A DNA stretch of 32,000 bases from Allobaculum fili (GCF_020969955.1 NZ_JAHDSX010000001.1:1-32000), one strand, 5' to 3'. Shown: positions 1-17,778, counted from the first letter of the stretch. Numbers and translations: made by a program. Notes: a model not told the origin generated them from the sequence alone.

Positions 1-731
1 TCAAGCTCAACGGAAATTTCGTCCATCGCTTCTTGAAGGTAATGAATTCTTTCGGCGACAGCCGGCACCTGAGCCAGCTGCGGATTGTTCTGAATAGCCT
101 GAATCACCTCTTCGCAATAGGAAACGGCGTCTTCAACCAGTCCGGAATTTGCCTTCTTCTTCGAAGGCATCTGTTCTGTCAGGGAAGAATCAAAAGAATA
201 AGCTGTTTTTCGCACAGCCTTGCAGCGTTTGAGAAGCTCTTCTCTGGGAGAGATATGTCTAAAACGAGAGTTTGAATGCGTTGAATCTACAATGATTCCA
301 TTTTTCGCGCTCATAACCCCTTTTTCCAGTGCCAGATCGACCGATCTTTTGATGAGGTCATCAAGAACAAGGTCCTGTGGGAGACGAGTAGAGCGAAATT
401 TGGAAAGAAGAGAGGGATCGATAATCTTCGTCTCTTCAGGATCCAGACCAAGAAAGAACTTCATTTCGAGGTCGAAGGTTGCCTTATGGATCAAATCACG
501 ATCGGAGAGCAAGTGAGCGGCTTTAAGAAGCAAAAGCTTAAGCATAAATTCAGGATCGACCGCCGTTCTTCCATAATCCTGTGTATAGTTCTCGCCAACG
601 ATGTCCCGAATAAAGGAAAAATCGACATTTTCCTTAAGCATTCGCCAGAAGTTCGTTTTGGGAATCAAAATGTCGTAAAGATCAAGGTAAGGGCTGTAGC
701 TAAGAGTCAGAGTATTCGAGTTATTCAGCAT
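1..731 (-). CDS. IS1182-family (IS5-like DDE) transposase, N-terminal ~243 codons; the 3' part lies beyond the left window edge
   Basis: Absent from the ORF track because it runs off the edge. Hand translation of the reverse strand from the ATG at 731-729 gives MLNNSNTLTLSYSPYLDLYDILIPKTNFWRMLKENVDFSFIRDIVGENYTQDYGRTAVDPEFMLKLLLLKAAHLLSDRDLIHKATFDLEMKFFLGLDPEE..IDPSLLSKFRSTRL. This matches the InsH/DUF772-type N-terminal region of IS1182/IS5 transposases. An alternative ATG lies at 743. Confidence 0.8.
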   Translation of the reverse strand, partial: MLNNSNTLTLSYSPYLDLYDILIPKTNFWRMLKENVDFSFIRDIVGENYTQDYGRTAVDPEFMLKLLLLKAAHLLSDRDLIHKATFDLEMKFFLGLDPEETKIIDPSLLSKFRSTRLPQDLVLDDLIKRSVDLALEKGVMSAKNGIIVDSTHSNSRFRHISPREELLKRCKAVRKTAYSFDSSLTEQMPSKKKANSGLVEDAVSYCEEVIQAIQNNPQLAQVPAVAERIHYLQEAMDEISVEL

Positions 732-810
732 AAACTTCACCATCCTATAAATACTATATAATAATATATAATAAAATTAATTCTAAATATTAATAAATTC
801 TATCATCGGT
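1..810 (-). mobile_element. Right-hand part of an IS1182-like insertion sequence (end position approximate)
   Basis: Transposase 5' end followed by a very AT-rich ~70 nt (744-810). Terminal inverted repeats cannot be verified because the other end is outside the window. Confidence 0.5.
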
Positions 811-1336
811 GCGGATACTCCAGGCAAATAAAAATTCCGACATACAATTTACTTATGTATGCCGGAATTTAAAGAGACTTTTTCAGCAGCCTCGCAGCTG
901 GCCATTTTTTTGCACCTCCAGAACGCAGGACCAATATAAAATCGGATTTATCTTCTCTTACGAGCGGCAGATCCGGTTTTTGTTTAGCACAGAAAACCCA
1001 AATGGGTGCGGCGGCCTGAGGGGACCAAAAAAGGACAGAGTGTTCGAAAAAGAGGCAATTGAAAAGGCTGCACGCCATTTGGATCGTCTGCCCAAAAAGG
1101 CAGAGGCATGATCCTGGAGGGGAAAGAATGAAAATGACTCCGGTGCTTAAGGACCTGTGTAAATCTTCCATCCGGGTATGGGCCAGATACAAAAATTCAA
1201 CAGATTTGAGCCATCTCTTTCTTCGTCAGTATCTGAAAAAGACTGGGTAAGGAAAAGCAAAATGCCCAAAGATTCCAGTGCATGCTTATGACGGCAAACC
1301 GATGCATCCGTTTTGAAAAAGAGATGGATCGTATAA

Positions 1337-1837
1337 ATGGACATGGGAAGACTGTATAAAAACATTGGATTTTTTCTGTTTGCCGGACTGCTTGGGATGG
1401 CATTGGTTGGACGGAATACGCCCGTCTTTCTCTCACGCCAAAAACCGGAAACCATAGAAGTCCAGATTGAAGGCGAAGTGCTCCATCCGGGTCTGTATTC
1501 GATCCCAAACGGATCTTCAATCCAGGATCTGATCGCGGTCGCCGGCGGTCTGAAAGACAGTGCGGATCCAGACGACTGGCCGCTTGGACGGGAAGTGCGT
1601 TCTCAGGAAGTGATTTTCATACGGGCGAAAACGGAATCCGGCCAGCCTGATCGAATCAGCATCAATACCGCCGATCAAAACGAGCTCATGGAACTGCCGG
1701 GCATTGGAGAAGCAAGCGCCAGCCGGATTCTCGCCTATCGTGAACTGCATCCTTTCACCTGCGTCGAAGAGCTGATGAACGTTCCGGGTATCGGTCAGAA
1801 AAAGTATGAAAAGCTTCGCGATCGGATTCGTCTGTAA
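1337..1837 (+). CDS. comEA: ComEA-family DNA receptor, intact paralog not followed by comEC
   Basis: 166 aa with an N-terminal hydrophobic anchor (IGFFLFAGLLGMALVG), a 'SIQDLIAVAGG' segment, and C-terminal tandem helix-hairpin-helix motifs (LMELPGIGEASASRILAYRE...LMNVPGIGQKKYEKLRDRIRL). It aligns along its full length with the comEA at 11218 and is clearly diverged from it. Confidence 0.85.
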   Translation: MDMGRLYKNIGFFLFAGLLGMALVGRNTPVFLSRQKPETIEVQIEGEVLHPGLYSIPNGSSIQDLIAVAGGLKDSADPDDWPLGREVRSQEVIFIRAKTESGQPDRISINTADQNELMELPGIGEASASRILAYRELHPFTCVEELMNVPGIGQKKYEKLRDRIRL

Positions 1838-2075
1838 CAGAAGCGGAAAAAGGTCGAAAACAGGAACACGGGGCTCGAAGTTCGGAAAAATCAGGGGCTT
1901 TCTGAGGGGAATTTCAGGACGCAAACCAAGTGAAATCGCTTAACTCGAAACACAAAAAGCGGAAAAGGGGACAAGAGTCCGTATGTCTATACATACCTTG
2001 CCTGCATAATCAGGAGCCAGCTCTAATCATGCTATCGTGGAGATATGCATTACTTGACAAAGGAGGAGAAACAGC

Positions 2076-2969
2076 ATGAACAAACTGTTGTCATCTTTGG
2101 CGGTCCTGTCGCTTGACATGGGCAGCCTCATGGCCCCTGTTTACGCGGCTGAGGATTCGCCTCAGGCCGTTCGCCGTACTCCGGCTAAAGAAGAAGATGC
2201 AGATAATGACTTTGAGCTTCTCAACGAAGGTGATAAGTACCTTCGTACTGGAGACAAGCTGAAGCTGGAGTTCACGAAGACGTATTACAAGGGTGTTCCA
2301 GTAGAGTATGACGTTACCTGGGTAAATCGTCCGGGCGTGATTGAGGTCGATGCAGACGGTGTGCTGCACGTCGAGAAGGCTGGTAACTACTATATGTACT
2401 ATGGACTGGAATATTCGAAGGAAACCTGTGAACGGTTTAAAAATGATGGGCTGCCAGCACTTGTGGATATGAACTTTTTCATGAACTTTGTGGTATCGGA
2501 CGATCCGTTTGTTTTCCGCCTGTATAACCCGAATTCAGGCGAGCATTTTTACACTTCCGATAAGAAAGAACGCCAGTTTCTGATTGATCAGGGCTGGCAA
2601 GGCGAAGGCTATGGCTGGCTGGGATCGGACACGTCCAGACAGCCGGTCTATCGTCTCTATGATCCAAATGCCGGCGATCATCATTTCACAATGGATAAAA
2701 AAGAATACGATGCGCTTGGCAAACTTGGCTGGACCCAGGAAGGAACCGCCTGGTACTGCTCACCTGAGACAGATACGCCAGTCTACCGGCAGTACAACCC
2801 GAACGCACAAGCTGGGCGTCATAACCTCACCTCTAACACGAAGGAAAAAGAGTATCTGATTTCTGTTGGCTGGAAGGACGAAGGCATCGTCTGGTATACA
2901 CCGGTTATTGCCTACTCGGACATAGATCTGGACTGGCTTGAAGAGACTCCGCCTATGGCGCATAACTAA
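2076..2969 (+). CDS. Secreted protein with three C-terminal 'YRLYNPN-G-HFYT...GW..EG..W' repeats (DUF5648-like)
   Basis: Strong SD (aaaggaggag) 5 nt upstream of the ATG. Signal-peptide-like N-terminus (MNKLLSSLAVLSLDMGSLMAPVYAAED). Three ~40-aa repeats, the third with an insertion, in the same order as at the C-terminus of the 17779-20973 protein. Confidence 0.85.
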   Translation: MNKLLSSLAVLSLDMGSLMAPVYAAEDSPQAVRRTPAKEEDADNDFELLNEGDKYLRTGDKLKLEFTKTYYKGVPVEYDVTWVNRPGVIEVDADGVLHVEKAGNYYMYYGLEYSKETCERFKNDGLPALVDMNFFMNFVVSDDPFVFRLYNPNSGEHFYTSDKKERQFLIDQGWQGEGYGWLGSDTSRQPVYRLYDPNAGDHHFTMDKKEYDALGKLGWTQEGTAWYCSPETDTPVYRQYNPNAQAGRHNLTSNTKEKEYLISVGWKDEGIVWYTPVIAYSDIDLDWLEETPPMAHN

Positions 2970-3050
2970 CCAAAATAAACAAACAGCCAATTGAAAAAAT
3001 TCCGAAGCGCCGGATTTACTGGCGTACTTCCATTCCGTCTGGCAAAAGCC

Positions 3051-3128
3051 AGTCCTGGGATCTTTCTGATTTTCATGGGGATTTACCTTGAAGAAAACCA
3101 GAATCGGTCCGTACAGGACTGTTTTTTT
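3051..3128 (+). terminator. Possible long-hairpin intrinsic terminator after the secreted protein gene
   Basis: Outer arms agtcctg (3051-3057) and caggact (3114-3120), with further partial inner pairing (ctgattttc / gaaaaccag), followed by a T7 run (3122-3128). Confidence 0.4.
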
Positions 3129-3721
3129 CATGTGGTAAAACTCACGTCCTCACTTGTCCCGTAACTTAATAGAATGAATAGCTCGTATCCTCCTCATTTT
3201 ATGGTTAGAGATGGATCCTTCTGCACCAACTCGCTTGCGGGACTAGAAGTGTTTCTTGCTGCGTTTGAAAAGGAACTGACGAGATGGTCGGTTTGCGCAG
3301 ACAGTCTTCTGCAGCTTCGAATAATGTAATACTGCTGATCTTTTCCGCGAAGCCGGCCAGTGCCATCCAAACGGTCATCACGATTTCATAAGTATTCAGT
3401 AACAGTATAGCCAGTGGTTTACGTTACTACCTGTCAGGTAAATCGGACTTCCTGATTCTTGTTTCTGGATTGGTTGTGAACCTTGGTAAGGCTTATCCTA
3501 CCCAGACTTGCTACTAAATATAAAAAACTGACGATCAGTTCGTCAGAAGACGGTGCAGAAAATTATGGGGCAGCTGATTCTGGTTTTGCTCTGAGAGTTA
3601 TGGTCCCTCTCAGGGACTTTGGAGGACCACTTTGCGATCTGACGGAACTTTCTGGAGACCGGATTCATAAGACACCTTATTTCTCGCTCAGGATGGGATT
3701 ATCCATGCTGAGGTGATGAAT

Positions 3722-4318
3722 ATGAATTATGCCTATCTTCGCGTTTCCACAAAGGATCAGTGTGAAGACCGACAGATGGATGCACTAACGGGTATGGACA
3801 TCGATCGAGTATTTCTCGATAAAGCCTCCTGTAAAAACTTCGAAAGACCCGAATACCAGAAACTTCTTAGCGTACTGAAGCCAGGGGATTTGCTGGTCAT
3901 CCACAGTATTGACCGGCTCGGCCGGAACTTTGAAGAAATACTGGAGCAGTGGCGGCTGCTGACCAGGGAATATCACGTTCATATCTTTGTGATCACAATG
4001 CCGCTTCTGGATACCCGAAAAGAGAACGATCTGATTGGATCGCTCATCAGCAATCTGGTTCTCCAGCTGCTCTCCTTCGTGGCAGAAACGGAACGAAACG
4101 CCATCAAAGAACGGCAGAAAGAAGGAATTGCCGCCGCCAAAGCCAGAGGAAAAGCCTTTGGGTGGCCAAGAAAGCCGATTCCGCAGAACTTTGAATACGT
4201 GGTATGTCAGTGGGAAAAGAAAGAATTATCCCTGAATGAAGCTCTGGAGCAGTCGGGAATGAAAAAAACAACCTTCTACAGAAGGTATCGAGAATATAAA
4301 AACGGTTCCATAAGGTAG
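3722..4318 (+). CDS. Small serine recombinase (resolvase/invertase family) with C-terminal HTH
   Basis: 198 aa. N-terminal 'MNYAYLRVSTKDQ..DRQ' catalytic-serine motif, 'IHSIDRLGRN' and 'ETERNAIKERQKEGIAAAKARG', then a short C-terminal helical DNA-binding-like tail. SD gctgagg lies upstream of the ATG at 3722; the ORF track starts at GTG 3713. Confidence 0.9.
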   Translation: MNYAYLRVSTKDQCEDRQMDALTGMDIDRVFLDKASCKNFERPEYQKLLSVLKPGDLLVIHSIDRLGRNFEEILEQWRLLTREYHVHIFVITMPLLDTRKENDLIGSLISNLVLQLLSFVAETERNAIKERQKEGIAAAKARGKAFGWPRKPIPQNFEYVVCQWEKKELSLNEALEQSGMKKTTFYRRYREYKNGSIR

Positions 4319-4345
4319 ACCTTTTGGAACCGCTTTTCTTTTCAA
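4303..4345 (+). terminator. Intrinsic terminator overlapping the recombinase stop codon
   Basis: 8-bp stem cggttcca (4303-4310) / tggaaccg (4325-4332), followed by cttttcttttc. Confidence 0.6.
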
Positions 4346-4625
4346 TAATTATATCCGCCTCGATTTTCGGGACAATATCGGCCTCGAAAATTACCAATTC
4401 ACTCCCAAATCGCAATCGTAATGTGCAACTGCCATTACCTTATTCTGGAAAAAGAAGAAAGTTCAAAAAGTCTAAGTTATGACACGTTTTTTATTTTGCT
4501 ATCTGATCTTTTTTTAACGGATTTCTTGTTTTCTAAGGGTAGTGCGAAGGAACTTATCTATGAAGGAAACAGCCTTTAATCGAGGGTAGAGCCATTACCT
4601 GAAAGTTGAAAAGAAAGAGAACGAA

Positions 4626-4893
4626 ATTGAAGGACAGAGACTTGTATATCGGGATATGAAATGACTGAAGAAAATGTGAGGAGCGCTGTGTCTTTGCACC
4701 CTGCTGCTTTTGTCGTCTTCGGGAGGACTTTTTCCCATGCGGTTAGAAAAGCAGGCGCCCGATACGATTCAGGCAGAAATCAAAGTCAAAGCCGCCCGCC
4801 CGGATGTGTACACGATAAAAAATGGTGCGACGATCCAGGATCTGATTGTGGCCGCCGGCGGGGAAACCGAAGGCGTCGATCTTTCGCGCATTT
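4626..4893 (+). repeat. Left copy of a 268-bp diverged direct repeat (comEA upstream region plus first ~79 codons)
   Basis: Gap-free hand alignment with 11188-11455 at a constant offset of 6562 bp: 24/30 identical upstream of the ATG and 197/238 identical from the ATG onward. The longest identical block is aagcaggcgcccgatacgatt (21 nt). Confidence 0.9.
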
Positions 4894-4895
4894 AA
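4656..4895 (+). pseudogene. Truncated, inactivated comEA 5' fragment
   Basis: Same frame as comEA at 11218, but codon 3 is TGA (TGG in the intact copy) and codon 8 is TGA. Homology stops after ...DLSR, with an immediate TAA at 4893-4895. Track ORFs 4661-4936 and 4710-4895 are pieces of this remnant. Confidence 0.85.
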
Positions 4896-5269
4896 GGAAA
4901 TTGAAATGTCTGGAATACCGTCTGAGACTCGCCTGACTAGTTTAGAACGAGAATTTGGAAGATGGATTTCATCGATCTCCATGCCTGTTAAAAAACAAAA
5001 CCATAGTAGATTATCTTGATTGAAGAATGAAACGCAACGATTTTGATGGAAGGACTAAACGCAATGAAGAAGGACCCAAAAGCGGCGTTTACATGTTCAA
5101 TTCATTAAAAATCCAGCAATCTCTTTCAAAATAAAAAAATATTATGAAATTCATTATGAATGGTAATAAGTTAAATATATTCGAACCGCTTTCAAACCTG
5201 TGTTGAATCGGTTGTACTTTGGCTTGCAAGGGTTACTAAGGCAGGCGCGTTTCAAAGGGAGAGGAAATA

Positions 5270-7015
5270 ATGGCTGACAGAATCATTCAGACTGCAGATC
5301 TTTCCACCATTGGAAAGAATTTAGAGGTTCTTAGTGACGGGATTCGCGTCGTTCATGAAGATGTAGTGACGACGAACAAACACGTTATGAACGTCGATTC
5401 AAACGTACGCGTGGTATACGACGAAGTAGAGAAACTAAAGGGAGAATTTCTCAAGTACGTAGATGCTCAGCTGAAGGCGAATCGCCTGCAGCAGGCAAGA
5501 ACTACGATCATTTCCATTCGTCAGGAACTGGAAAAAGAATACGGACATTACGATGAAGTTCGGCGCAGCTGTATCGGAATTTTACAGGCGACCGACCTTG
5601 ATCTGGTCCGAAAAGGAACAATTTCTACAATTTCTGAAAATTTACTGGTAGAGGCGCCCCGCTACTGGCTGGCACCGTGTCTGGTTGCCTTAGCCGCCTG
5701 GATTTCGGATGACAAACCCCTGGCGGATAGAGCGGTTAAGGAAGCGATTCACCGAGATGATGAGAAAACTTCACTGTTTTTCTCGCTTGTAACGCGCAGA
5801 GCTGACCGCAAACAGGCGACGCTCCAGTGGGTAAGCCGATTCATGGAAAATCAGGATTCTGAAAACCTGAATCGTAATGCGGTTATTATTCTGGATGCTT
5901 ATGCGAGCGGGCTTCTTGGGCAGGATACAAAAGGTCTGGTTACAGCGCAAATGGAAAAGTGGCTGAATCACCTGAAGGATAAACCTGGATTTGTCGAAAC
6001 ACAGCGTAAGAACTGGGCATCCGCAATTTTGCTGAAGAAAAAGAAATATGCGGGAAAGGGATATACGTATCTGCCTGCCTGTTCTTCCACCTGGCCTCAG
6101 CTTAGCGATGTGATGGCTGGCGCCATACTGAACACAACGATTTATAACTATTTTGACAGCATTTATAAAAAGCAATCATCAACGGAATCTCTCAAGGAAC
6201 AGCTGGATCAGATTCTGGAAACTCTGGTTACCGAGTTCGATGAAGAAGAACTGCCCTGGAGAAAGAAGGAAAAGTTTGAACAGCTGATTATCGATAATGG
6301 CGGGGACGAAAAACTCGCTCAGAAGAAAATGAAGATCGAGGAAACGGCCTTCGAGGAGAAGAAGGATTTCACTCAGCTGCTGACCGATTCGGCAATGAAG
6401 CCGGAAATTTCCCATGCGTCCCCTTCCACCCAGAAGTTCGCTATTTCGCTGTCTAAAGAATGGATTCTTGAAGGATATCAGGATGTTGTGGCAGGAAATC
6501 GAGCGAACGTTCCTGATGAGATCAATTTATCGGTCGATGGATATTCCTGCTCAACAAGAGACGGGGAGAATGAAAACGAATTGATCGAGGGCTTAAAAAA
6601 AAATATGGAAACGGTCAGAGCGGAACAGCTTGCCCAGTATGAACTTACAGCTGGGGATACCGTGGCTTTTTACGGCGGGATCGCCATTGCAGTAATTGGC
6701 CTGATCATGCTCGTATCCGGAAGCATGCTGTTCGGTCTGATCGCAGTCATTGCTGGATGCATTCTGGTCGTAAAGCATATCAGCAAAAAGAATGCTGTCG
6801 AAAAAGGCAGAGAAGCAGTTAATCAGCAAATTAATGAGCGTATTGAAAAGGGAACACAGGCTTTACGTGCCCTCTGCGCTGAAGTGGTAGATTTCCGTGC
6901 TGAATTTGCCAAAGAGGATGCAGTGAGTGCTCAGGTTCTGGATTTCCTGGAGGCGATCACTCCAAGCGAATACGTAAAGAATCTTACCGAGAACGGAAAA
7001 TCGGTATTAGTCTAG
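5270..7015 (+). CDS. Cassette gene A: 581-aa coiled-coil/helical protein with a C-proximal transmembrane hairpin, unknown family
   Basis: SD gggagagg upstream of the ATG. Heptad-like helical N-terminus (~100 aa), a helical central domain (APRYWLAPCLVALAAWISDDKPLADRAVKEAI..KTSLFFSLVTRR), a K/E-rich segment, the hydrophobic stretch VAFYGGIAIAVIGLIMLVSGSMLFGLIAVIAGCILVV (about 6662-6772), and an amphipathic C-terminal tail. Confidence 0.85.
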   Translation: MADRIIQTADLSTIGKNLEVLSDGIRVVHEDVVTTNKHVMNVDSNVRVVYDEVEKLKGEFLKYVDAQLKANRLQQARTTIISIRQELEKEYGHYDEVRRSCIGILQATDLDLVRKGTISTISENLLVEAPRYWLAPCLVALAAWISDDKPLADRAVKEAIHRDDEKTSLFFSLVTRRADRKQATLQWVSRFMENQDSENLNRNAVIILDAYASGLLGQDTKGLVTAQMEKWLNHLKDKPGFVETQRKNWASAILLKKKKYAGKGYTYLPACSSTWPQLSDVMAGAILNTTIYNYFDSIYKKQSSTESLKEQLDQILETLVTEFDEEELPWRKKEKFEQLIIDNGGDEKLAQKKMKIEETAFEEKKDFTQLLTDSAMKPEISHASPSTQKFAISLSKEWILEGYQDVVAGNRANVPDEINLSVDGYSCSTRDGENENELIEGLKKNMETVRAEQLAQYELTAGDTVAFYGGIAIAVIGLIMLVSGSMLFGLIAVIAGCILVVKHISKKNAVEKGREAVNQQINERIEKGTQALRALCAEVVDFRAEFAKEDAVSAQVLDFLEAITPSEYVKNLTENGKSVLV

Positions 7016-7032
7016 GAGGATCAGTAATTTAT

Positions 7033-7524
7033 ATGCCGAATAATAGCGTAAATATCTGTCCATTCTGCGGAGCTTCGGTAAACGCGGATTGTATTTTCTG
7101 TACACAATGCGGACATCGACTGACGGAAAATCCTCAGAATGACCAGACAGAGCCGTCCGTAACCGGCGAGGAAGTTCTGGACGCTTTCCCGCAGGTTACA
7201 TTCGAATCCTTACCAGATCTTCAGGAAACGGAAAATCCTTTCCCGGAAGATACCTCCAGCAGTGCTCAGGCGAAGCCGGCAGAAGAAATTGAAGAACCTG
7301 CTGCCTTTGAAGAAGACGCTGCTGTACTTGAATTTGATAATTTCTTTACCGAAAGTCCAAAGCAGGAATCCGCTCCTCAAAAGCCTGTGGGCGAGGCATC
7401 GAATCTTGCCCTGCAATCGATGCTGGATAGCATGGAAAAACAGTCCGCGCTGGCTAAAGGCCTTCCAGACTGGGATATTGAGCCGCCTCATTTGATGATC
7501 AATCGCAAGAAAAGGGATAAGTAA
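7033..7524 (+). CDS. Cassette gene B: zinc-ribbon protein with an acidic disordered linker and a conserved-looking C-terminal motif
   Basis: SD aggagga overlaps the stop of A. N-terminus ICPFCGASVNADCIFCTQCGHRL (CxxC...CxxC). About 90 aa rich in E/P/D/Q. C-terminus ...LALQSMLDSMEKQSALAKGLPDWDIEPPHLMINRKKRDK. Confidence 0.75.
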   Translation: MPNNSVNICPFCGASVNADCIFCTQCGHRLTENPQNDQTEPSVTGEEVLDAFPQVTFESLPDLQETENPFPEDTSSSAQAKPAEEIEEPAAFEEDAAVLEFDNFFTESPKQESAPQKPVGEASNLALQSMLDSMEKQSALAKGLPDWDIEPPHLMINRKKRDK

Positions 7525-7526
7525 GG

Positions 7527-7976
7527 ATGAAAGCGCCGGCTACATATTATGAATGGGTACCTGTCTTTGAAGAACTGAAGCGATGCTCTCGCAATGCAGA
7601 GATTATCGATATTCTTCATAGAGGGACCCTGTCCTGGCAAAGCGGAGTTGCTCAGCGTTTTTCCGAGAAACTGGTAGAAGCTGTAAATTATCGGCTCAAT
7701 GCTGCCAATGACACGTTTTCTCGAAACATGGCCCATGCTTCGGATGAACGAGCCATAATCCAGTCCTTACATACTTTACGTAAAGAGATTGAATTTCTTT
7801 ATCAGGCCGTGAACATTCCAGCGGTGCCGGAAAACTATCGAATTCAGTACATGGATATGATTAAAAAACAGGCAGATACGTTCCAGAGTTCGCTGGAAAA
7901 ATCCGCAAAAAGCGACAGGACCGGAAAGTTGGGATACCTGATTCGAAATAATAAAGTGAACCATTTTAAAGCTTGA
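7527..7976 (+). CDS. Cassette gene C: 149-aa predicted all-helical soluble protein, unknown family
   Basis: Starts 2 nt after the stop of B, suggesting translational coupling. No hydrophobic segments and no motif I recognise. Confidence 0.7.
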   Translation: MKAPATYYEWVPVFEELKRCSRNAEIIDILHRGTLSWQSGVAQRFSEKLVEAVNYRLNAANDTFSRNMAHASDERAIIQSLHTLRKEIEFLYQAVNIPAVPENYRIQYMDMIKKQADTFQSSLEKSAKSDRTGKLGYLIRNNKVNHFKA

Positions 7977-7993
7977 AAGGAAGTAAGAATCAT

Positions 7994-9568
7994 ATGAGCG
8001 CCCTACAGGAAGCAAAAAAAAGCATGCTTCAATACGCGACGGCTCGCATACCGCTGGTAACTATTCATTCCATAGAAATTGCCAGAGTTTTAAACATGCT
8101 TGGAGAAGTCAGTGAAGAGAAAGAAATTCCTTATTTTGTTCATACGTCTACAAAAGGGGTTTATGACTTAAAAACCAAAAAGTCAGCGACTGACGATAAG
8201 TCTCTTTATTCTGCTTTGGAATTTATTACTGAACAAATGTCAAGACGCTCAAATTTAACCATAGTATTCACCGAGCTCCCGGATCTGAGTACAGAGAATT
8301 CGGATTCAAGGGCGTTTCTGGCTCTGGTCAATTTAGCTAATGAAACGGGCGGTCAGATTATCCTGCTGACGACCAACACGCTCTGGAATACTTTGCAGCG
8401 TCAGGGAATGCTCATTGACGTGGCCCTTCCTGACGAAGAAGAAATGTATGAAATTATCAACCGGGTTTTGAACGACTACAGGAGCTCGATTTTCGTCGAA
8501 TGGGATGACAGCGACGTGAAAGAAGCAGCAATGGCCCTGGCTGGCGTTTCGCAGGTCGAAGCAGAAAATGTTCTGGTTTCGCTGATCGCAAAACGAGAAG
8601 TTCTGAAATCCGATCTTGTGGAAATCCGGTATGCAAAAGACAAGCTTTTCTCCGATATTTCTGGTTTGGAAAAAATCGTAGTCGATCCATCGGTAAAAAA
8701 TGTCGGCGGTCTGGCTGGTCTGCAAAAATGGCTGGATGAAAAGAAGAGCCTCATGACTCCGGAAAAGAGGGAGTTCTTACGGGCGATGGGACTTCAGCCG
8801 CCTAGAGGAATTCTTCTGGTCGGAGTACCCGGATGCGGAAAATCACTGTCCGCAAAATCGATTTCCGCAAACTGGGAATTGCCTTTATACCGGCTCGATT
8901 TTGCGACTGTGCAGGGAAGCTATGTCGGCCAGACCGAACAGCAGTTAAAAGATGCGCTGACAACCGCAGAAAACGTAGCGCCGTGCATTTTGTGGATCGA
9001 TGAAATCGAAAAAGGATTATCCGGTGCAACAGGCCCGTCTGGAGACGGCGGGGTTTCCACGCGTATGGTCGGACAGTTTTTGTTCTGGCTTCAGGAATGC
9101 AAGAAACCAGTATTTGTAGTAGCCACAGCCAATGACGTCAGTATGCTCCCCAGTGAACTTCTGCGCCGGGGCCGATTTGACGAGCTTTTTTTTGTGGATC
9201 TTCCTACGGCAGATGAGCGGCGTGATATCCTGACGCTTTACATGAGAAAGTACTTGAGAGTGAACTTTACCGGAAAATTTGCTGACCAGATTGTGGATAT
9301 CACCGATGGATTTACAGGAGCCGATCTGGAATCCACAGTTCGAGATCTCGCTTATCGCAAACTCGCAAATTCCGAGTTCCGTCTGGATGCGAAAAATATC
9401 GTAGAAGCTTTTGAAAATGTAGTTCCGCTTTCTCAGACCAGTCCGGAAAAAATTGAAGCTATACGAAACTGGGGAAAAGAAAAAGCGGTTCCTGCATCCG
9501 GAAAACCAATCGGCGACTCTGTACTGAGCGAGAAAAAAGGCGAGCGCCGCCGTAAAGTGCTGATCTAA
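7994..9568 (+). CDS. Cassette gene D: classic-clade AAA+ ATPase, Ycf46-like architecture (degenerate N-terminal domain plus one active AAA module)
   Basis: ATG 7994 preceded by gaaaggaag; the track start at 7973 is a TTG overlapping the stop of C. Walker A GVPGCGKS (about 8822-8845), Walker [10 protein letters not shown] (about 8986-9009), sensor-1 VVATAN, second region of homology/arginine fingers LLRRGRFDE. The N-terminal ~270 aa lack a P-loop. Confidence 0.9.
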
Positions 9569-9741
9569 GTGCTTATTTTCTGACGGAAAAGACAGGAAAC
9601 GCTTTTACCCGGATCGATCCATGGAGCTGCTGCGATCGGGCTGAATTTGTAAGCCTTCCTGGACAGCCGATGCAAAGTCATGCAGAAGCAGAGAATGCAA
9701 TTGAAGAGAGTGCAATAAAAGGTGAATGGAGGAGAGTTGCT

Positions 9742-10221
9742 GTGCCAATTCCAATGCTGAAGAAGCCGCAGGAGCAGGCGAAAACAACCTTATCTGCCTC
9801 GAAACCGAAGAGCAGAACAAAAACACAGTTTGACATGGCCCAGCGGGAAAGACTGCTGCGAAAAAAGCGCTCCAGTGAATATATGAATTTGATTCACAAA
9901 CTGGACGCCGGCGGACATGTTCATAACCGTCATCAGTTAGAAGAAATTCTGAACCAGATCAATGCCGAACTTCCGGATATTGAGCTGGAAGGCTACATGC
10001 TGGGCATTGTCAGCAAGTGCTATTTAGGGGTTCCTTATGAAGTCCATTCTCTCGACTATGCGGGAGGAATTATCACCCACTACAAAAGAAATGAGCCTCT
10101 TCCAAATGGAATGGAAAAAGCCAGGTCGCTGGCTATGCGGGGGGGCTACCAATTCATCGAAGTCTATACCGATAAGATGTGCTGCGTGGACGCCTCTGGC
10201 AGAGTTTCGATTGTGCAGTAA
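9742..10221 (+). CDS. Cassette gene E: 159-aa basic-N-terminus soluble protein, unknown family
   Basis: Strong SD ggaggag (9728-9734) 7 nt upstream of GTG 9742; the next in-frame ATG is at 9754 and the track start at 9670 has no SD. K/R/S-rich N-terminal ~40 aa, then a compact domain (GYMLGIVSKCYLGVPYEVHSLDYAGGIITHYKRNEPLPNGMEKARSLAMRGGYQFIEVY). Confidence 0.65.
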   Translation: MPIPMLKKPQEQAKTTLSASKPKSRTKTQFDMAQRERLLRKKRSSEYMNLIHKLDAGGHVHNRHQLEEILNQINAELPDIELEGYMLGIVSKCYLGVPYEVHSLDYAGGIITHYKRNEPLPNGMEKARSLAMRGGYQFIEVYTDKMCCVDASGRVSIVQ

Positions 10222-10262
10222 AGCCGGGTCAGCCAGAATGTACAGCTGGAAATGAGGAGATT

Positions 10263-11030
10263 ATGGACATTATTTTGACTGTGATCGTTATGGTTCTCGC
10301 ACTCGTCTTTCTGAACGCACTGTTTTTTAAAATGGCGGGTTCCGATGATTACGGGTTCGACAAAGTAATTGAAGGCTTGATTGCAGTGATGATTCTTTAC
10401 CTGGTGATCATTGCCTGCTTTGGGGATTTCATCAATATTAAAGGATTGCCTTTCGTGGATCAGCTGGAAAATTTCGCGGGGATTCACGATATTTATGCGA
10501 ATGACAAGACCCTGTTTTTCACAGAATGTGCAGAACTGGTTTGCCTTCTGTTTGTAATTTCGCTCATTTCACAGTACATCCCCAAAACTGGAGGAAATGG
10601 TTTAGGCGGCAAAATTATTGTTGGAATTCTCACGCTTGGATGCGGGGTAATTCTGAATAACTATCTGGTCACCTGGAGCAAGAGCAACAGCACATGGGAA
10701 ATTCTGCTTAAAGCCGTGCAGTGCGCGATAGCCGGAACGGCGGTTCTGAATATTCCTGTATCTCTGGTGGCTCATTTTATGGGGACGAGTTCAGAGGATT
10801 CCTTTGCTTCCTTTATCGCAAATCATCTGTCGAAAACAAAAGTATCCAAAGCATTAACCGCTTCCGTTACGAATGCGGCAGTGCTGACGGGCGGACTGAT
10901 GGTTCTTGAAAATCAGATGGGAAGCTTAAATGGACTGCTGGCTTCTGCTCCCGCCCTTCTTGAGCTGGGCGGAACGATCGTTCTTATGATTGTCGGAATT
11001 CGCTTAATGATTAAATCGATTTCCCGATAA
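10263..11030 (+). CDS. Cassette gene F: 255-aa polytopic membrane protein (about 6-7 TM helices), unknown family
   Basis: SD gaggag 4 nt upstream of ATG 10263. Successive hydrophobic segments (DIILTVIVMVLALVFLNALFF; LIAVMILYLVIIACFGDFI; AELVCLLFVISLISQYI; IIVGILTLGCGVILNNYLV; AVQCAIAGTAVLNIPVSLVAHF; AAVLTGGLMVL; LELGGTIVLMIVGIRLMI). Confidence 0.8.
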   Translation: MDIILTVIVMVLALVFLNALFFKMAGSDDYGFDKVIEGLIAVMILYLVIIACFGDFINIKGLPFVDQLENFAGIHDIYANDKTLFFTECAELVCLLFVISLISQYIPKTGGNGLGGKIIVGILTLGCGVILNNYLVTWSKSNSTWEILLKAVQCAIAGTAVLNIPVSLVAHFMGTSSEDSFASFIANHLSKTKVSKALTASVTNAAVLTGGLMVLENQMGSLNGLLASAPALLELGGTIVLMIVGIRLMIKSISR

Positions 11031-11062
11031 TTCAGCACAATTGAGCTTTATCTTTCGAGAAA

Positions 11063-11097
11063 AACGGATTCATCATCAGGAATGGATCCGTTTTTTT
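11063..11097 (+). terminator. Strong intrinsic terminator closing the six-gene cassette
   Basis: Stem aaaacggat(tcat) / (atgg)atccgtttt with an 8-nt loop and a T7 run (11091-11097), 33 nt after the stop of F. Confidence 0.85.
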
Positions 11098-11187
11098 GTG
11101 CGTTCAGCCTGCCGTTCTGCCGTATAGAAAGATAGTCGGATCCGACGGATTCAAAACAAAACGGCTTCAAAGAGGAAAAAAAACAAT

Positions 11188-11455
11188 ATTGAAGGACAGT
11201 CTTTCGTATATCTGGATATGAAGTGGCTGAAGAAAATGAGCGGACCGTTCTGTCTTTGTGCTCTGCTGCTCTTGTCGTCTTCGGGAAGACTTTCTCTGAT
11301 GCCGTTAGAGAAGCAGGCGCCCGATACGATTGAAGCGGAAATCAAAGGCGAAGTCGTCGCTCCGGATGTTTACACGATCAAAAATGGGGCGACGATTCAG
11401 GATCTGATTGCAGAAGCGGGCGGGAAAACCGAAGGCGCGGATCTTTCCCGCGTTT
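11188..11455 (+). repeat. Right copy of the 268-bp diverged direct repeat (upstream region and 5' end of intact comEA)
   Basis: See the left copy at 4626-4893: about 221/268 identical by hand alignment, with no gaps. Confidence 0.9.
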
Positions 11456-11712
11456 CCCTTCAGGAAGAAGTGAAAGCGCATGAAGTGATTGTGATCGCCA
11501 AAAAGAAAGCCGATCCCCAGGCGCAGCCGATTCGAATCACCATGGCAAGCAAGGAAGAACTGATGACTTTGCCGGGGATCGGCGAATCGACGGCGCAGAA
11601 AATTCTGGCGTATCGCGAAGAACATGGCTTTTTCAAACTGGAAGATCTGATGGAAGTGCCTGGCATTGGCGAAAAGAAGTTTGAAAAGCTGAAGGATCGA
11701 ATCGCGCTGTGA
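11218..11712 (+). CDS. comEA: ComEA DNA receptor (competence protein), first gene of comEA-comEC
   Basis: 164 aa with an N-terminal anchor, 'TIQDLIAEAGG', and tandem HhH motifs (LMTLPGIGESTAQKILAYRE...LMEVPGIGEKKFEKLKDRIAL). Its stop overlaps the comEC start (GTGA). Confidence 0.9.
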   Translation: MKWLKKMSGPFCLCALLLLSSSGRLSLMPLEKQAPDTIEAEIKGEVVAPDVYTIKNGATIQDLIAEAGGKTEGADLSRVSLQEEVKAHEVIVIAKKKADPQAQPIRITMASKEELMTLPGIGESTAQKILAYREEHGFFKLEDLMEVPGIGEKKFEKLKDRIAL

Positions 11713-13883
11713 GAAAACGGACACGCGCGCAGACAGTCGATCCAGCGGCTGCGGCTTTATCGGCCCGCTCAAATCGAGGACAGAGCCGCTGGAAAAATGG
11801 GTGGGAAAAAGGGAAAGCCTGGGCGAATGCACCAAAAGGCAAGGATGATGCGCCGTGGCTATGCCTGGCGATCGCTTTCTGGCTGATTTTATGGATTGAT
11901 CGATTCTGGCTCTGCGTGGCTGCCATTCTGGCAGGGGCCTTATGGCTGAACTGGCGATTTCGTCACGGCTGGCCTGTCCTGGTGTGGATTGGACTGGGCG
12001 CTTTCGCGATCGGTGTTCTCATGGGATCAGCCGCGGCTTCCCGGCGCGTGCCGCAGGAGGGAGAATACCGGATTTGTGAAATTCGATCCGGCTATGCGAT
12101 GGCTTCGAATAAACGGGATTCGGTAATCGTTTATGAACCGGAATCCTTCATTCTGGATCAGACCGTGTTTCTTTCGGATTTTGAACGCATCCATTCGGCG
12201 GACAATATCGGTCTGTTCAGCTTTGGCCGCTACGTGGCGCAAAAGGGGATTTACTACAGCGCAGCCCCTCCAAAGGACGATCAGAATACTCCACAGGCGC
12301 AGAATCTGGCTCATCCAGAAAAAGCCAGACGACAGGAACCGGAAACGATAAAAGCCAGAGTCTGGCGCTTTGTAAATTCGAGACGAGCTGCGTCGCTGTA
12401 TCGCCTGCTGATTTACGGGATAAACGACAAAGACGAACTGGACTGGATCGGGACGCTCGGACTGCCGCTGATGGGATTGCTGGGGGTAATAAAAAAGCGG
12501 CTGTCGAGAAGACTGTATAAACCGCAGGTCAGTCTGGCGGTGTTTGGAATTCTTGGCGGATTTGCGCTGATCGTTCCGGTTTCGATTTCCGTGATGCGCA
12601 TGGCGGTATTTCTGATCGCTTCAACGCTCTTTGAAAATCGGGCTAAACGCCTGTCCTTTTCTATTCTGACTATGCTTCTGATCTGTCCGCAGTCTGCACG
12701 AAGCATGAGTCTGGTTTTGCCGGGCGCCATTTTGTTTTTTACGCGGTTTGTAGAAGGGAGCGGTCCAAAGCGCTTTGTTTCTTCCTGTGTCTGCATTCTT
12801 TGCCAGATCGCCTTTACGGGCAAGGTCAATTTGTTTTTCCTGCTGGCCTTTACGTGGCTGAGGCAGCTCTTCGGGTGGCTTTTCCTGCTGAGTCTGCTCG
12901 GTCTGTTCTGGGAAGAGTGGGGCACGGTTCTGGAGAAGGGCCTGTCGTCTCTGGATGTTTCGTTTGAAGCCTTCGATCTGCATGGAATGGCACCGCTCTG
13001 GTATTTCGTGCTGCTCTGCATGGTGCTGATGGCGATCTGCTGGAAATGGAGCAAGGGCAGAGCACTGCTTTGTCTGGTGCTCTTTGGCCTTTATCCGGCA
13101 ATATGGCATTTTGATCCTTTTTATCACGTGTATATGCTTTCCGTTGGACAGGGAGACGCCACTGTCCTGGTGGAGCCTTTCATGAAAAGCGTTGTTATGA
13201 TCGATGCCGCCGGGCGATTTAATCATGACAATGCCTCCGAGCTGTTTATCCCGTTTTTTCAAAGCCGCCAGATTTCTCAGCTCGACGCGCTGATCGTAAC
13301 GCATGGCGACTTTGACCATAACGGAGCGGCGGCTTCGCTTTGCGAACAGTTTTCCGTAAAGAAGAAGATCGAGGAAAGCGGCCAGATCGTTCCGGTCGAC
13401 TATCCATTCGAACTGCTGCTGCCGCAGCGACAGGCCGATCCCGACGACGAAAACGATCAGAGCCTGATCAGCCGCTTCGCCTTCGACGGCTTTTTCTATC
13501 TTTGGACGGGCGATGCTTCGACAGCGATCGAAGAGCAGCTGCTCGATCGGTATGTCCTGTCTTCGGACGTGCTGAAACTTGGTCATCACGGCTCTTCGAC
13601 GAGTTCTTCCTGGGACTTCATAAAAGAATGCGATCCCCAGCTGGCTCTGATTTCCGCCGGCTATAAAAACCGGTACGGGCATCCGTCCAATGAAGTACTT
13701 TTGCGCCTGAGCGAACTGGGCATTGATCGTCTGAATACCGCGGATCATGGCATGGTCCATCTGCAGAGTTTTCACGGCTGCATGAAAATTGAAACCGCCG
13801 ATGGCCTGACGGCCTGGATCGGGAACAAAAAAGAAAAGGCAGCCTTGCCAAAACAGGAGACTGCCAGAGAAACAGATTCTTAG
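11709..13883 (+). CDS. comEC: ComEC/Rec2 DNA internalisation channel with C-terminal metallo-beta-lactamase domain
   Basis: 724 aa from GTG 11709; the start is uncertain, and the first in-frame ATG lies after the first TM helices. Many TM segments. C-terminal MBL motifs HVYMLSVGQGDATVLV, THGDFDHNG, LKLGHHGSSTSS. Confidence 0.9.
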   Translation: MRKRTRAQTVDPAAAALSARSNRGQSRWKNGWEKGKAWANAPKGKDDAPWLCLAIAFWLILWIDRFWLCVAAILAGALWLNWRFRHGWPVLVWIGLGAFAIGVLMGSAAASRRVPQEGEYRICEIRSGYAMASNKRDSVIVYEPESFILDQTVFLSDFERIHSADNIGLFSFGRYVAQKGIYYSAAPPKDDQNTPQAQNLAHPEKARRQEPETIKARVWRFVNSRRAASLYRLLIYGINDKDELDWIGTLGLPLMGLLGVIKKRLSRRLYKPQVSLAVFGILGGFALIVPVSISVMRMAVFLIASTLFENRAKRLSFSILTMLLICPQSARSMSLVLPGAILFFTRFVEGSGPKRFVSSCVCILCQIAFTGKVNLFFLLAFTWLRQLFGWLFLLSLLGLFWEEWGTVLEKGLSSLDVSFEAFDLHGMAPLWYFVLLCMVLMAICWKWSKGRALLCLVLFGLYPAIWHFDPFYHVYMLSVGQGDATVLVEPFMKSVVMIDAAGRFNHDNASELFIPFFQSRQISQLDALIVTHGDFDHNGAAASLCEQFSVKKKIEESGQIVPVDYPFELLLPQRQADPDDENDQSLISRFAFDGFFYLWTGDASTAIEEQLLDRYVLSSDVLKLGHHGSSTSSSWDFIKECDPQLALISAGYKNRYGHPSNEVLLRLSELGIDRLNTADHGMVHLQSFHGCMKIETADGLTAWIGNKKEKAALPKQETARETDS

Positions 13884-17023: not shown

Positions 17024-17778
17024 GGAACCTCCATTCCAGGATTCGAACGCGGTTCGATCCGGGGGCTGTTTGAATGAATCCTATTATGACGCAGAATTAG
17101 CACAAGTACAGTAAGAGTGCCAGCCTTCGTCAATTTCACAAAATTTGGATTTTTTCTTCGAAAAGCGGGTAAGAAGGTCGGAAGAAAAATTTATCCATTC
17201 TCTGTAACAATATCGTACCCATCTGTTTCAGTCCTCAAAAATGAACGACAAAATCCTGTCTTGCAGAAGAGAACAGTTTGAAGATACAGGTCCAGAACGG
17301 CTTTGCCAATGGAAGAAATAGAGAATACCTCTCAACAATTTCTTAAGACAGACCGATAAGGTTTGCCCTTGCGCAGGAAGCCTGCCGCAGCCCTTTATTA
17401 GAGCGAAAATAATCGAAAATAATAAGGTACACAGGTCCGGTATCTATCGCGGATCTGATCGTTTTTTCGTACAGAATGACAGGAGTTTTGCCCGAAAACG
17501 GGAAGAGAAAACCAAAAATAAAGCAAAACGCTCGCGATACGCTCATGCTGAATATAGAAAAAGACGTTTCGTTCTTTCAAATACGCACGACAATGTATTT
17601 TCAGCAACAGACGTTGTTTTTAAAAAGAAAACCGTGTGATTTCCAAAAGCGAAACGCCGACAGGCAAAGGATTTTAAGGGGATCCAGGCGAACGAAAACA
17701 GGGGAAAAGAGAAAGCGGCTGCGCGCTGTGGGCAGGCGGCAGTGTACAAAAACAGGGAATTTGAGAAAGGAGACGGAA

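Follow-up and report, generated by a model that had tools for sequence, protein, structure and literature searches.

In the window analysed here, a 32,000-nt stretch of the gut bacterium Allobaculum fili (GCF_020969955.1 NZ_JAHDSX010000001.1:1-32000) matched by a complete Allobaculum genome (CP078088.1), a horizontally acquired insert with six genes is flanked by direct repeats of one fragment of comEA. The upstream copy of this fragment is 3´-truncated, while the downstream copy is complete. The direct repeat is confirmed: positions 4613–4893 and 11175–11455 align without gaps over 281 nt at an offset of 6562, with 230 of 281 positions identical (82%). This identity is about 20 SD over chance, as the same 281-mer slid across the whole window gives a background of 25.2% ± 2.7%. 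The identity is evenly spread along the repeat (14–18 per 20 nt), and the two copies differ by 51 substitutions and zero indels over 281 nt, with an overall dN/dS of 0.29. Weak, gapped similarity reaches slightly further upstream, to around 4600 and 11162. The hand counts of the initial annotation (24/30 identical positions before the ATG and 197/238 from it onwards) were exact on recount. The longest identical run between the copies comprises 21 nt, AAGCAGGCGCCCGATACGATT, and is centrally placed within the repeat (4749–4769). No att-like identical core was found at the repeat edges, either in the repeat alignment or at both junctions.

The right repeat, copy C (11175–11455, + strand), contains the promoter-proximal region and codons 1–79 of a functional comEA and, as had been described, continues into intact comEA–comEC. 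The gene comEA_C (11218–11712, +) encodes an intact ComEA of 164 aa, with the SLBB (3.3e-10) and HHH_3 (7.3e-19) domains and a score of 62.7 against TIGR00426 (cut-off 53.1). The protein has the N-terminal membrane anchor, the SLBB domain and the C-terminal helix-hairpin-helix DNA-binding domain that define ComEA, and it is 77% identical to ComEA of the sister species A. mucilyticum. The following gene, comEC (11709–13883, +; 724 aa), overlaps the comEA stop codon. Its product shares 62% identity with ComEC of A. mucilyticum, and the synteny downstream of comEC is conserved.

The left repeat, copy B (4613–4893, +), corresponds to the comEA promoter-proximal region and codons 1–79, and is a pseudogene fragment that keeps only the membrane anchor and a degenerate SLBB domain. 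Its homology ends at about codon 79, followed immediately by a stop as previously noted, codon 80 being TAA at 4893–4895. Copy B had been considered dead owing to TGA at codons 3 and 8. Both triplets are present in the window, but the one at codon 8 is strain-specific (TGA in the window strain, AGA in L022-type strains) and the one at codon 3 is perhaps outside the ORF, since the A. mucilyticum comEA start is called at Met7 and the same start in B would leave it upstream. Copy B is still degenerate, as the conserved KGEV motif reads KVKA. It starts 294 nt past the stop codon of the upstream resolvase gene, with its ATG 338 nt past that stop. The conserved 125-nt block ahead of it also follows the resolvase gene in A. 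mucilyticum. This location supports the view that B occupies the ancestral site and is a remnant in decay. The promoter retained by B may now drive the cargo by read-through.

To the left of the repeats, the window opens with the right end of an IS1182-family insertion sequence (1–893, −), whose transposase gene runs from around 731 off the left window edge. One locus extending the window leftwards (L025) carries the complete 510-aa transposase (DUF772, DDE_Tnp_1, DDE_Tnp_1_6), and the same-strain contigs L001, L002 and L004–L006 all end at 864, approximately k-1 nt inside this multi-copy element. A third comEA-like gene, comEA_A (1337–1837, +; 166 aa), is full-length, intact and divergent, with SLBB and HHH_3 domains and a TIGR00426 score of 54.4 (cut-off 53.1). 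Its product is 54% identical to ComEA_C, being more distant than any outgroup ComEA, and no close homologue was found outside the species. A promoter-proximal motif is common to copies A, B and C. The next gene (2076–2969, +) encodes a DUF5648-repeat small protein and is a native syntenic neighbour, 58% identical to the A. mucilyticum gene at the same relative position.

The gene closest to copy B (3713–4318, +) encodes a recombinase of 201 aa and of the resolvase/invertase type. The YLRVSTKDQ motif, the size and the N-terminal catalytic domain (PF00239, 100.5 bits, residues 6–147) assign it to the small serine recombinases. The nearest solved structures are Sin/Bin3, together with gamma-delta resolvase and DNA-invertase, and the protein matches phrog_125, ‘DNA invertase’ (5.8e-51). 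The resolvase terminator hairpin (arms 4300–4316 and 4319–4335) and a conserved non-coding block (4316–4444) indicate what originally lay upstream of comEA. Over 134 nt, the block shares 83.6% identity with A. mucilyticum, where it is found directly after the resolvase 3´ end. The initial annotation included neither comEA_A nor the serine recombinase gene, nor an inverted comEA fragment of A. mucilyticum (fragment F, see below).

The cargo between the repeats is a six-gene operon within a block of ~6.2 kb, with a GC content below that of the flank (0.46 for 894–11131 vs 0.53 to the right of 11132). An AT-rich leader or intergenic region (4894–5269, +; GC 0.36) forms the left end of the insert; it contains a 27-nt tandem pair at 5013–5066 and showed no similarity to comEA 3´ or comEC 5´ sequences. 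The signature gene of the module, g1 (5270–7015, +), encodes an all-alpha protein of 581 aa with a C-terminal transmembrane hairpin and has more than 2000 homologues, at ~54% identity; its AF2 model reaches a pLDDT of 73, with no significant fold match in the PDB. The product of g2 (7033–7524, +; 163 aa) is a zinc-ribbon protein (Zn_Ribbon_1, 6e-05, below the curated cut-off), only weakly similar to its Mordavella counterpart. Two further members of the core module, g3 (7527–7976, +; 149 aa) and g5 (9670–10221, +; 183 aa), encode proteins 47% identical to the Mordavella counterpart and 50% identical to a 166-aa Mordavella protein, respectively. Between them, g4 (7973–9568, +; 524–531 aa) encodes a classical-clade AAA+ ATPase (PF00004, 97.9 bits) with a family-specific N-terminal domain, which matches phrog_8638 over its full length (1.8e-102) and shares 73% identity with the Mordavella homologue. 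The last cargo gene, g6 (10263–11030, +; 255 aa), encodes a predicted membrane protein; the identical protein occurs in 40 collection blocks, with comEA–comEC following it in 10/10 places listed. A terminator-like hairpin and T-run (11060–11100, +; inverted repeat 11060–11073/11082–11095, then TTTTTTTG) ends the operon.

No recombinase or transposase family was detected among the six proteins of 4894–11174 with Pfam, NCBIfam, PHROGs or PADLOC, and the sole recombinase found sits outside the repeats. The anti-phage system IetAS, composed of the IetA ATPase and the IetS serine protease, was considered for the cargo and rejected: only the AAA domain of g4 (residues 261–502, 1.7e-31) resembles IetA, and no other cassette protein matched the PADLOC models, IetS included.

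Judging by its homologues, the cargo is a widely travelling accessory operon with a four-gene core (g1, g3, g4 and g5). The four core genes co-occur at two loci of the collection (L119 and L120), and cargo homologues are also carried by an element with two large serine recombinases. In Mordavella the homologues form an operon away from comEA, while small plasmids contain g1 homologues. Furthermore, the Streptococcus phage satellite Javan368 (MK448457.1) harbours homologues of g1, g3, g4 and g5 in the same order at its accessory end.

In the sister species A. mucilyticum the genes follow the same order (DUF5648, resolvase, comEA, comEC, C39 and FtsH), but the cassette is missing. Because the flanking synteny is shared, the 6.2-kb block is an insertion, in agreement with the initial annotation, and two further relatives also have a single comEA–comEC. 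The search for an empty site in related genomes, which had been suggested, succeeded in part: the cassette is absent in A. mucilyticum, but no precise empty site was recovered. The A. mucilyticum interval is itself rearranged, with an IS remnant and an F–Y–X insertion, and its resolvase gene is a pseudogene with remnants at the same place as the window gene. Fragment F is an inverted C-type comEA 5´ fragment inside this resolvase gene, 91% identical to C, and the genes upstream of F differ from those of the window. The junction of F lies inside the recombinase gene and shows just 2 nt (CA) of microhomology, which argues for an illegitimate rather than a site-specific event. The 21-nt run shared by B and C stops exactly at the F truncation point. 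The homology to C fades within ~20 nt of the same pre-promoter point in both fragments, at 11158 for F and at 11162–11175 for B.

Within the species, the same layout was found in all the sampled contigs and genomes spanning the cassette–comEA junction, with a uniform SNP density over the island and its flanks. No empty site was detected among the contigs and genomes that span the site, the cassette being absent only in other species. The insertion is an old, fixed scar rather than an active mobile element, and the fixed layout and uniform SNP density agree with the previous statement that the duplication is not recent. On the other hand, the excision of a 6562-bp circle by recombination between the repeats, proposed on the same occasion, finds no support, because no recombinase gene lies in the insert and the repeats share no identical run longer than 21 nt; neither an att-like core nor an empty site in the species was found. 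An integrase-bearing integrative element (prophage, ICE or attL/attR island) was rejected for the lack of its own recombinase, of an att core and of empty sites in the species. A sister-strain breakpoint maps at 11131–11132, where the contigs of four samples carry, leftward, 29–30 nt of unrelated, apparently multi-copy sequence; this 29-mer is absent from the window, from the other fetched loci (up to 6 mismatches) and from viral_contigs.

The B-derived changes are distributed over codon positions as 8/6/9, with 8 synonymous and 15 non-synonymous changes, a neutral pattern (p = 0.33), while the C-derived changes are distributed as 1/3/6, with 6 synonymous and 5 non-synonymous changes and thus a synonymous excess (p = 0.03); these branch tests include only 23 (B) and 11 (C) substitutions, and Fisher's test of B vs C is not significant. 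The number of third-position changes is similar, 9 on the B branch and 6 on the C branch. In comparison with outgroup comEA, C is 76.5% and 79.7% identical at the nucleotide level over its 5´ part, against 73.9% over its 3´ part, or 78% vs 76% at the protein level. Copy C does not appear to be chimeric, its 5´ and 3´ parts being about equally distant from the outgroup. This similar distance, combined with B changes that look neutral from the start, speaks against the initial proposal of an element that brought its own diverged comEA-like 5´ end. The neutral B branch and the constrained C branch suggest that the two copies were probably nearly identical when the structure was formed, although the dN/dS of 0.29 and the zero indels leave room for earlier divergence. 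In the phylogeny of the 5´ segments, previously proposed to identify the native copy, the tree is ((C,F),B), with the C 5´ end nearer to F. C shows no 5´/3´ discontinuity against the outgroups. Since F resides in A. mucilyticum with other upstream genes, this tree indicates that comEA 5´ segments moved between Allobaculum lineages. Import from a close relative is conceivable, given that a C-type fragment moved into A. mucilyticum.

On balance, an old, fixed insertion-duplication of resident comEA sequence, of the Campbell type, is somewhat favoured. Campbell-type insertion-duplication is the single-crossover integration of a circular DNA carrying an internal or 5´ gene fragment, and it is used for mutagenesis in naturally transformable Firmicutes. 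The ancestral locus would have contained DUF5648, the small serine recombinase, a short spacer, comEA and comEC. A foreign segment of ~6.2 kb (4894 to ~11170, comprising leader, six genes and terminator) would have integrated at comEA codon 79/80, duplicating ~290 bp with the comEA promoter-proximal region and the first 79 codons. Probably a circular DNA bearing the 5´ fragment recombined once with the chromosome. Such a single crossover leaves exactly this arrangement, in which a 3´-truncated copy lies to the left of the insert and a full-length copy, preceded by its own promoter, to the right. With promoter and entire reading frame preserved in the right copy, comEA–comEC would have stayed functional, while the left copy would have become a pseudogene and drifted neutrally to 82% identity. 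As in the laboratory procedure, the homologous fragment forms direct repeats with only the right copy complete, and the unit between equivalent points (6562 bp) is the presumed size of the circle. Unlike it, the Allobaculum case is natural and ancient, with copies 18% diverged and an insert without vector or replicon functions. Several points weigh against this scenario. The circle that served as donor is hypothetical, and the insert contains nothing that would account for its circularisation. The absence of indels among 51 substitutions is somewhat unexpected under pure neutrality and would fit selected divergence in another lineage, to which the dN/dS of 0.29 also points. The small substitution numbers of the branch tests, the ((C,F),B) tree, which leaves room for import models, and the want of a precise empty site in a close relative count on the same side.

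One-step duplication of resident sequence fits better than an element carrying its own diverged 5´ end. According to the latter alternative, which is rather unlikely, the cassette came from a related Allobaculum lineage, already joined to the comEA promoter and first 79 codons of that lineage. It would have entered as an element's terminal part or through recombination with one homologous arm in comEA, which would make the C 5´ end foreign and leave B as the native end that was displaced. The ancestral, resolvase-proximal position of B agrees with this, as does the closer similarity of the C 5´ end to F (91%) than to B (84%), which implies that C-type modules with variable upstream genes cross species; the dN/dS value, the lack of indels and the common upstream point at which F and B lose homology to C can be counted on the same side. 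However, C lacks a 5´/3´ discontinuity against the outgroups, the B branch has no constrained phase, the insert has no integrase, the F junction is illegitimate, with 2 nt of microhomology, and a one-armed linear fragment should replace its target rather than duplicate it. It is quite improbable that the comEA promoter and N-terminus act as a portable adaptor, by which C-type-linked cargo moves between Allobaculum species and lodges at the comEA/resolvase locus without inactivating uptake, possibly aided by the recombinase. If so, the four-gene AAA+ module of phage satellites would sit behind a competence-gene promoter.

A tandem duplication of comEA and its promoter, after which the cassette took the place of the spacer and of the 3´ portion of B, the upstream paralogue, is an improbable course of events. 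The full-length copy A, 3 kb upstream, suggests that comEA duplication can happen, and the promoter-proximal motif is common to the three copies; nevertheless, A separated long before B and C did, being more distant than every outgroup. Neither insert edge retains a comEA 3´ or comEC 5´ remnant, local alignments being no better than shuffles, the neutral B branch leaves no functional period, and the model needs two events that both stop precisely at the duplication junction. Most improbable of all is a site-specific system, integron-like or resolvase-type, in which the adjacent small serine recombinase captures or excises cargo at a comEA 5´ site and the repeats are functional recombination sites. 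The intact recombinase gene 294 nt upstream of B, the association of the same gene with an extra comEA 5´ copy in A. mucilyticum and the end of the longest conserved run exactly at the F truncation would all suit such a system. They are opposed by the position of the A. mucilyticum junction inside the recombinase gene itself, with CA microhomology only, by the lack of a shared dyad-symmetric site at the three places, by the pseudogene state of the A. mucilyticum recombinase and by the absence of presence/absence or orientation variants in any contig of either species. Invertase-driven switching of gene ends (shufflon-like) was likewise rejected, as the window copies are direct and the single inverted copy of A. 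mucilyticum has the same orientation in 4/4 loci.

Mobile DNA landing in competence genes usually disables them. Known examples are the Listeria comK prophage, the pneumococcal prophages at competence-inhibiting attB sites and the AbaR islands in comM. These elements bring an integrase of their own and short, identical att cores; they vary between strains, and the gene they enter is usually inactivated. The Allobaculum locus shares with them the lodging of foreign DNA within a DNA-uptake gene, but its insert has no integrase or att core, is fixed in the species and leaves the gene preserved by duplication. Mobile elements in competence genes have been placed in the context of an arms race (PMC12637031, PMC11472951). 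The outcome observed here would be the opposite one, with the duplication of promoter and 5´ end having let a foreign operon settle in comEA with the uptake genes intact.

The rearrangement is ordinary genome evolution and involves no new mechanism. The islands at the 3´ ends of tRNA and tmRNA genes also carry a replacement gene end, but there the duplicated stretch is short, the site is specific and the element itself encodes the recombinase. In both cases a second copy of the gene end allows the target to go on functioning once the insert is in place; in comEA it is ~290 bp of 5´ end plus promoter that are duplicated, and the evidence favours resident sequence. The locus thereby offers a dated natural example of scar decay, with one copy neutral and the other constrained.

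Finally, the window module has the same four core homologues in the same order as the accessory end of Javan368, but contains the extra genes g2 and g6 and lacks a satellite backbone. The uncharacterised four-gene AAA+ module, found in a phage satellite, plasmids and integrative elements, is a sensible choice for functional work, for instance on anti-phage activity.

Two copies of the start of comEA lie in direct orientation in the window. The left copy (copy B, 4613-4893) and the right copy (copy C, 11175-11455) align ungapped at a constant offset of 6562 bp with 82% identity (230/281), against a background of 25.2% ± 2.7% identity when the same 281-mer is slid over the remaining window, the next-best match there being a third comEA copy, in register at 1300. 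The initial annotation had described such a repeat, and its counts by hand (24/30 identical positions ahead of the ATG, 197/238 from it onwards) are exact. It had also called the left copy dead and the right copy functional, which agrees with the sequence: copy B has TGA at codons 3 and 8 and its homology ends at a TAA at codon 80, while copy C is the start of an intact comEA gene (comEA_C, 11218-11712) that encodes 164 aa with SLBB and HhH domains and overlaps comEC (11709-13883). A promoter scan of both copies revealed no strong sigma-70 match at either of them.

The codon-8 stop of copy B (window 4677) is polymorphic: window-type strains carry TGA there and other strains of the species (L022 type) carry AGA, and in the latter an ORF from Met7 would stay open for 73 codons. 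If translation begins at Met7, the start called in A. mucilyticum, the codon-3 stop falls outside this ORF. Copy B is degenerate even with the Met7 start, because the invariant KGEV motif reads KVKA.

The FtsH protein assigns the window to Allobaculum, with 85% identity to its counterpart in a MAG of an uncultured Allobaculum and 81% to the one in the complete genome of A. mucilyticum strain 128. The gene order in A. mucilyticum is FtsH, C39, comEC, comEA, remnants of the same small serine recombinase gene that lies left of copy B in the window (3713-4318), and a DUF5648 gene. None of the six genes between the repeats (0/6) is present at the A. mucilyticum locus, and two more distant relatives carry a single comEA-comEC each, which indicates that the block between the repeats, about 6.2 kb from 4894, is an insertion in this lineage. 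Furthermore, a non-coding block of 125 nt immediately downstream of the recombinase 3' end in A. mucilyticum is 84% identical to window 4316-4444. This conserved block, combined with the spacing of copy B, which starts 294 nt past the recombinase stop, places copy B at the ancestral position of the comEA start.

The conservation of the 125-nt block between the two Allobaculum species (about 84%) compares with only about 70% for the adjacent coding genes, and the block may serve in regulation or recombination. Between this block and copy B there is also a perfect 10-nt direct repeat, GCCATTACCT, at 4431-4440 and 4591-4600 (160 nt apart), a pair possibly left behind by a small insertion or a local duplication.

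Copy B is the sister of copy C, on a long branch. The two halves of the intact gene are about equally close to the outgroup: ComEA_C is 78% identical to A. mucilyticum ComEA in its N-terminal half and 76% in its C-terminal half, and at the nucleotide level the 5' part of comEA_C matches the outgroup at 76.5% and 79.7% and its 3' part at 73.9%. Therefore, copy C shows no chimeric break at codon 79. The differences between copies B and C were polarised with two outgroups, A. mucilyticum comEA and the outgroup locus L012. The B-derived changes are distributed 8/6/9 by codon position (8 synonymous versus 15 non-synonymous), which fits neutrality (p=0.33), and the C-derived changes 1/3/6 (6 synonymous versus 5 non-synonymous), with a synonymous excess (p=0.03); third-position changes are alike on both branches (9 in B and 6 in C), all of these being small substitution counts. 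The simplest reading of these sequence patterns is that B and C were nearly identical at formation and that B has since drifted while C has been under selection. The pairwise dN/dS of B versus C (0.29) and the zero indels over 281 nt leave room for some divergence between them before the event.

A further comEA 5' fragment (F) is found in A. mucilyticum, where the recombinase gene is split (NZ_CP078089.1, ~17960-19720, and the loci L117 and L118). Recombinase codons 1-20 are fused to F, an inverted piece spanning -60 to comEA codon 38, beyond which lie two unrelated genes, one for a membrane protein of 209 aa with a zinc ribbon and one for a lipoprotein-like product of 179 aa. The 3' end of the recombinase gene comes next, then the conserved block, and an IS4-like remnant lies between that block and comEA. 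The same arrangement is found in 4/4 A. mucilyticum-type loci, and a JGI metagenome scan with a 27-mer common to C and F recovered only two loci, both of A. mucilyticum type. F is 91% identical to copy C, 83.5% to copy B and 79% to A. mucilyticum's own comEA, and the tree of the 5' copies, with the A. mucilyticum gene as outgroup, is ((C,F),B). F shows that 5' pieces of comEA have passed between species, out of a lineage near that of the window, and have settled at this same locus. The F junction has only 2 nt (CA) of microhomology and is thus illegitimate; a site of recombinase action common to the 5' end of the resolvase gene and comEA codon 38 was rejected for the same feature.

The mechanism that we consider somewhat better than an even bet is insertion-duplication, in which a circular DNA with a comEA 5' fragment recombined with the chromosome by a single crossover. 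Such an event would leave exactly the observed order of a truncated left copy, the insert and a right copy that is complete and has a promoter of its own, in a unit of 6562 bp. It has alternatively been proposed, in the initial annotation, that the cassette arrived together with a foreign comEA 5' end. The cross-species history of F is the main reason to keep this import in view, and the continuity of copy C across codon 79 speaks against it, so that we regard it as rather unlikely. The earlier interpretation is partly supported: it holds in seeing an old insertion and a left copy that is the decayed remnant of a gene start; the diverged 5' end of its own that it ascribed to the element is not needed.

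A tandem duplication of comEA followed later by the insertion is more doubtful still, as no remnant of the comEA 3' end or the comEC 5' end is present at the insert edges. A search after the third comEA-like gene found no such remnant either. A platform driven by the recombinase is given very little credence. The recurrence of extra comEA 5' copies beside the recombinase gene in two species is a lead in its own right. The event as a whole is of a known kind, of which the locus is a further example. No report of this locus was found in the literature, where the papers retrieved treat elements that inactivate competence genes.

The layout is identical in all contigs and genomes of the species that span the region, among strains 99.1-99.9% identical, in agreement with the previous view that the insertion is old. 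The between-strain SNP density is even over the island and its flanks. No empty site emerged from exact-protein look-ups with ComEA_C (the 164-aa and the called 137-aa forms), ComEA_A, ComEC, g1 and g6, of which g6 by itself appears in 40 indexed collection blocks. The excision of a 6562-bp circle, also suggested earlier, is unsupported: B and C share no identical stretch longer than 21 nt, and their alignment contains no att-like core at the repeat edges. Terminal inverted repeats were sought at the insert ends with no convincing case.

In a sister strain (99.2% identical; 4 samples, L007-L010, positions 1-29), the sequence left of 11131|11132 is replaced by CGTATACCCGTCGATTGTTTGACACTTAC, a 29-mer absent from the window, from the set of loci retrieved and from viral_contigs. 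This junction was considered as an insert boundary or as an alternative or empty site and rejected, given that the foreign tail has a length of exactly k-1 nt and is the same in the 4 samples. Such a tail is expected where a multi-copy element, for instance an IS, adjoins 11131|11132, and CGTATACCCGTCGATTGTTTGACACTTAC is probably the end of one. The complete genome CP078088.1 (491414-498181) differs from the window by 0 mismatches and 19 gap openings, which break g4, comEA and comEC into pieces in its annotation; they look like sequencing errors in homopolymers rather than genuine pseudogenes.

The insert comprises a 376-nt AT-rich leader at its left end, six genes (g1-g6, 5270-11030) and a terminator hairpin, and GC content is 0.46 left of 11132 and 0.53 right of it. 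No recombinase or transposase is encoded in the insert, as judged by Pfam, NCBIfam, PHROGs and PADLOC. A tandem 27-nt pair with 78% identical units (5013-5066) lies in the leader upstream of g1 and may be an operator or other regulatory repeat; Rfam and tRNA scans detected no RNA elements in the window. Homologues of the cargo form an operon in Mordavella, where they do not adjoin comEA, and those of g1, g3, g4 and g5 occur together on IMG/VR contigs, in one case (L119, 5583-10119) beside two large serine recombinases. In Javan368, a phage satellite of Streptococcus (MK448457.1, 9674-14257), the g1-g3-g4-g5 core makes up the accessory end, and g1, which has >2000 homologues at ~54% identity, is found apart from the other module genes on small Komagataeibacter plasmids. 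These several mobile settings indicate that the cargo is a widely travelling accessory module.

The g4 product is an AAA+ ATPase of the classical type that matches an uncharacterised phage family over its whole length. No match that would point to a function of g1 came from Pfam, NCBIfam, PHROGs, PADLOC or a profile search of the PDB. Its AF2 model shows an all-alpha fold that includes a transmembrane hairpin and has no significant structural match; in Foldseek this model resembled ClyA-type toxins weakly at most (TM <=0.27). The module fits no system listed in PADLOC, and a defence role can only be guessed from where it occurs. The uncharacterised four-gene AAA+ module is a second lead.

The ComEC protein has very few database relatives, and a scan of GTDB genomes with ComEC as the sole query gave no matches. 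Only the metallo-beta-lactamase domain was matched in Pfam for this protein and its relatives P0001-P0004. The Competence (PF03772) and DUF4131 domains, present in other ComEC proteins, go undetected in this lineage, and the channel domain is therefore unusually divergent.

Left of copy B, the initial annotation had omitted the recombinase gene, an IS1182-family element at the left edge and the third comEA-like gene (copy A). The IS element (window 1-893, extended leftwards by 1-1851 of the locus L025) encodes a 510-aa transposase that crosses the left edge of the window, and its multi-copy nature explains why most same-strain short-read contigs break at 864. Copy A (1337-1837, 166 aa) is a full-length, divergent comEA-like gene, intact in all strains and flanked by the IS and a native DUF5648 gene. 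Its product is 54% identical to ComEA_C, a greater distance than that of any outgroup ComEA, and has no close homologue beyond this species. The small DUF5648 gene is also present in A. mucilyticum as a native neighbour of the locus. The two DUF5648-repeat proteins of the window (2076-2969 and 17476-20973) have in common diverged repeat units of ~66-71 nt, which form the families D2 and D3.
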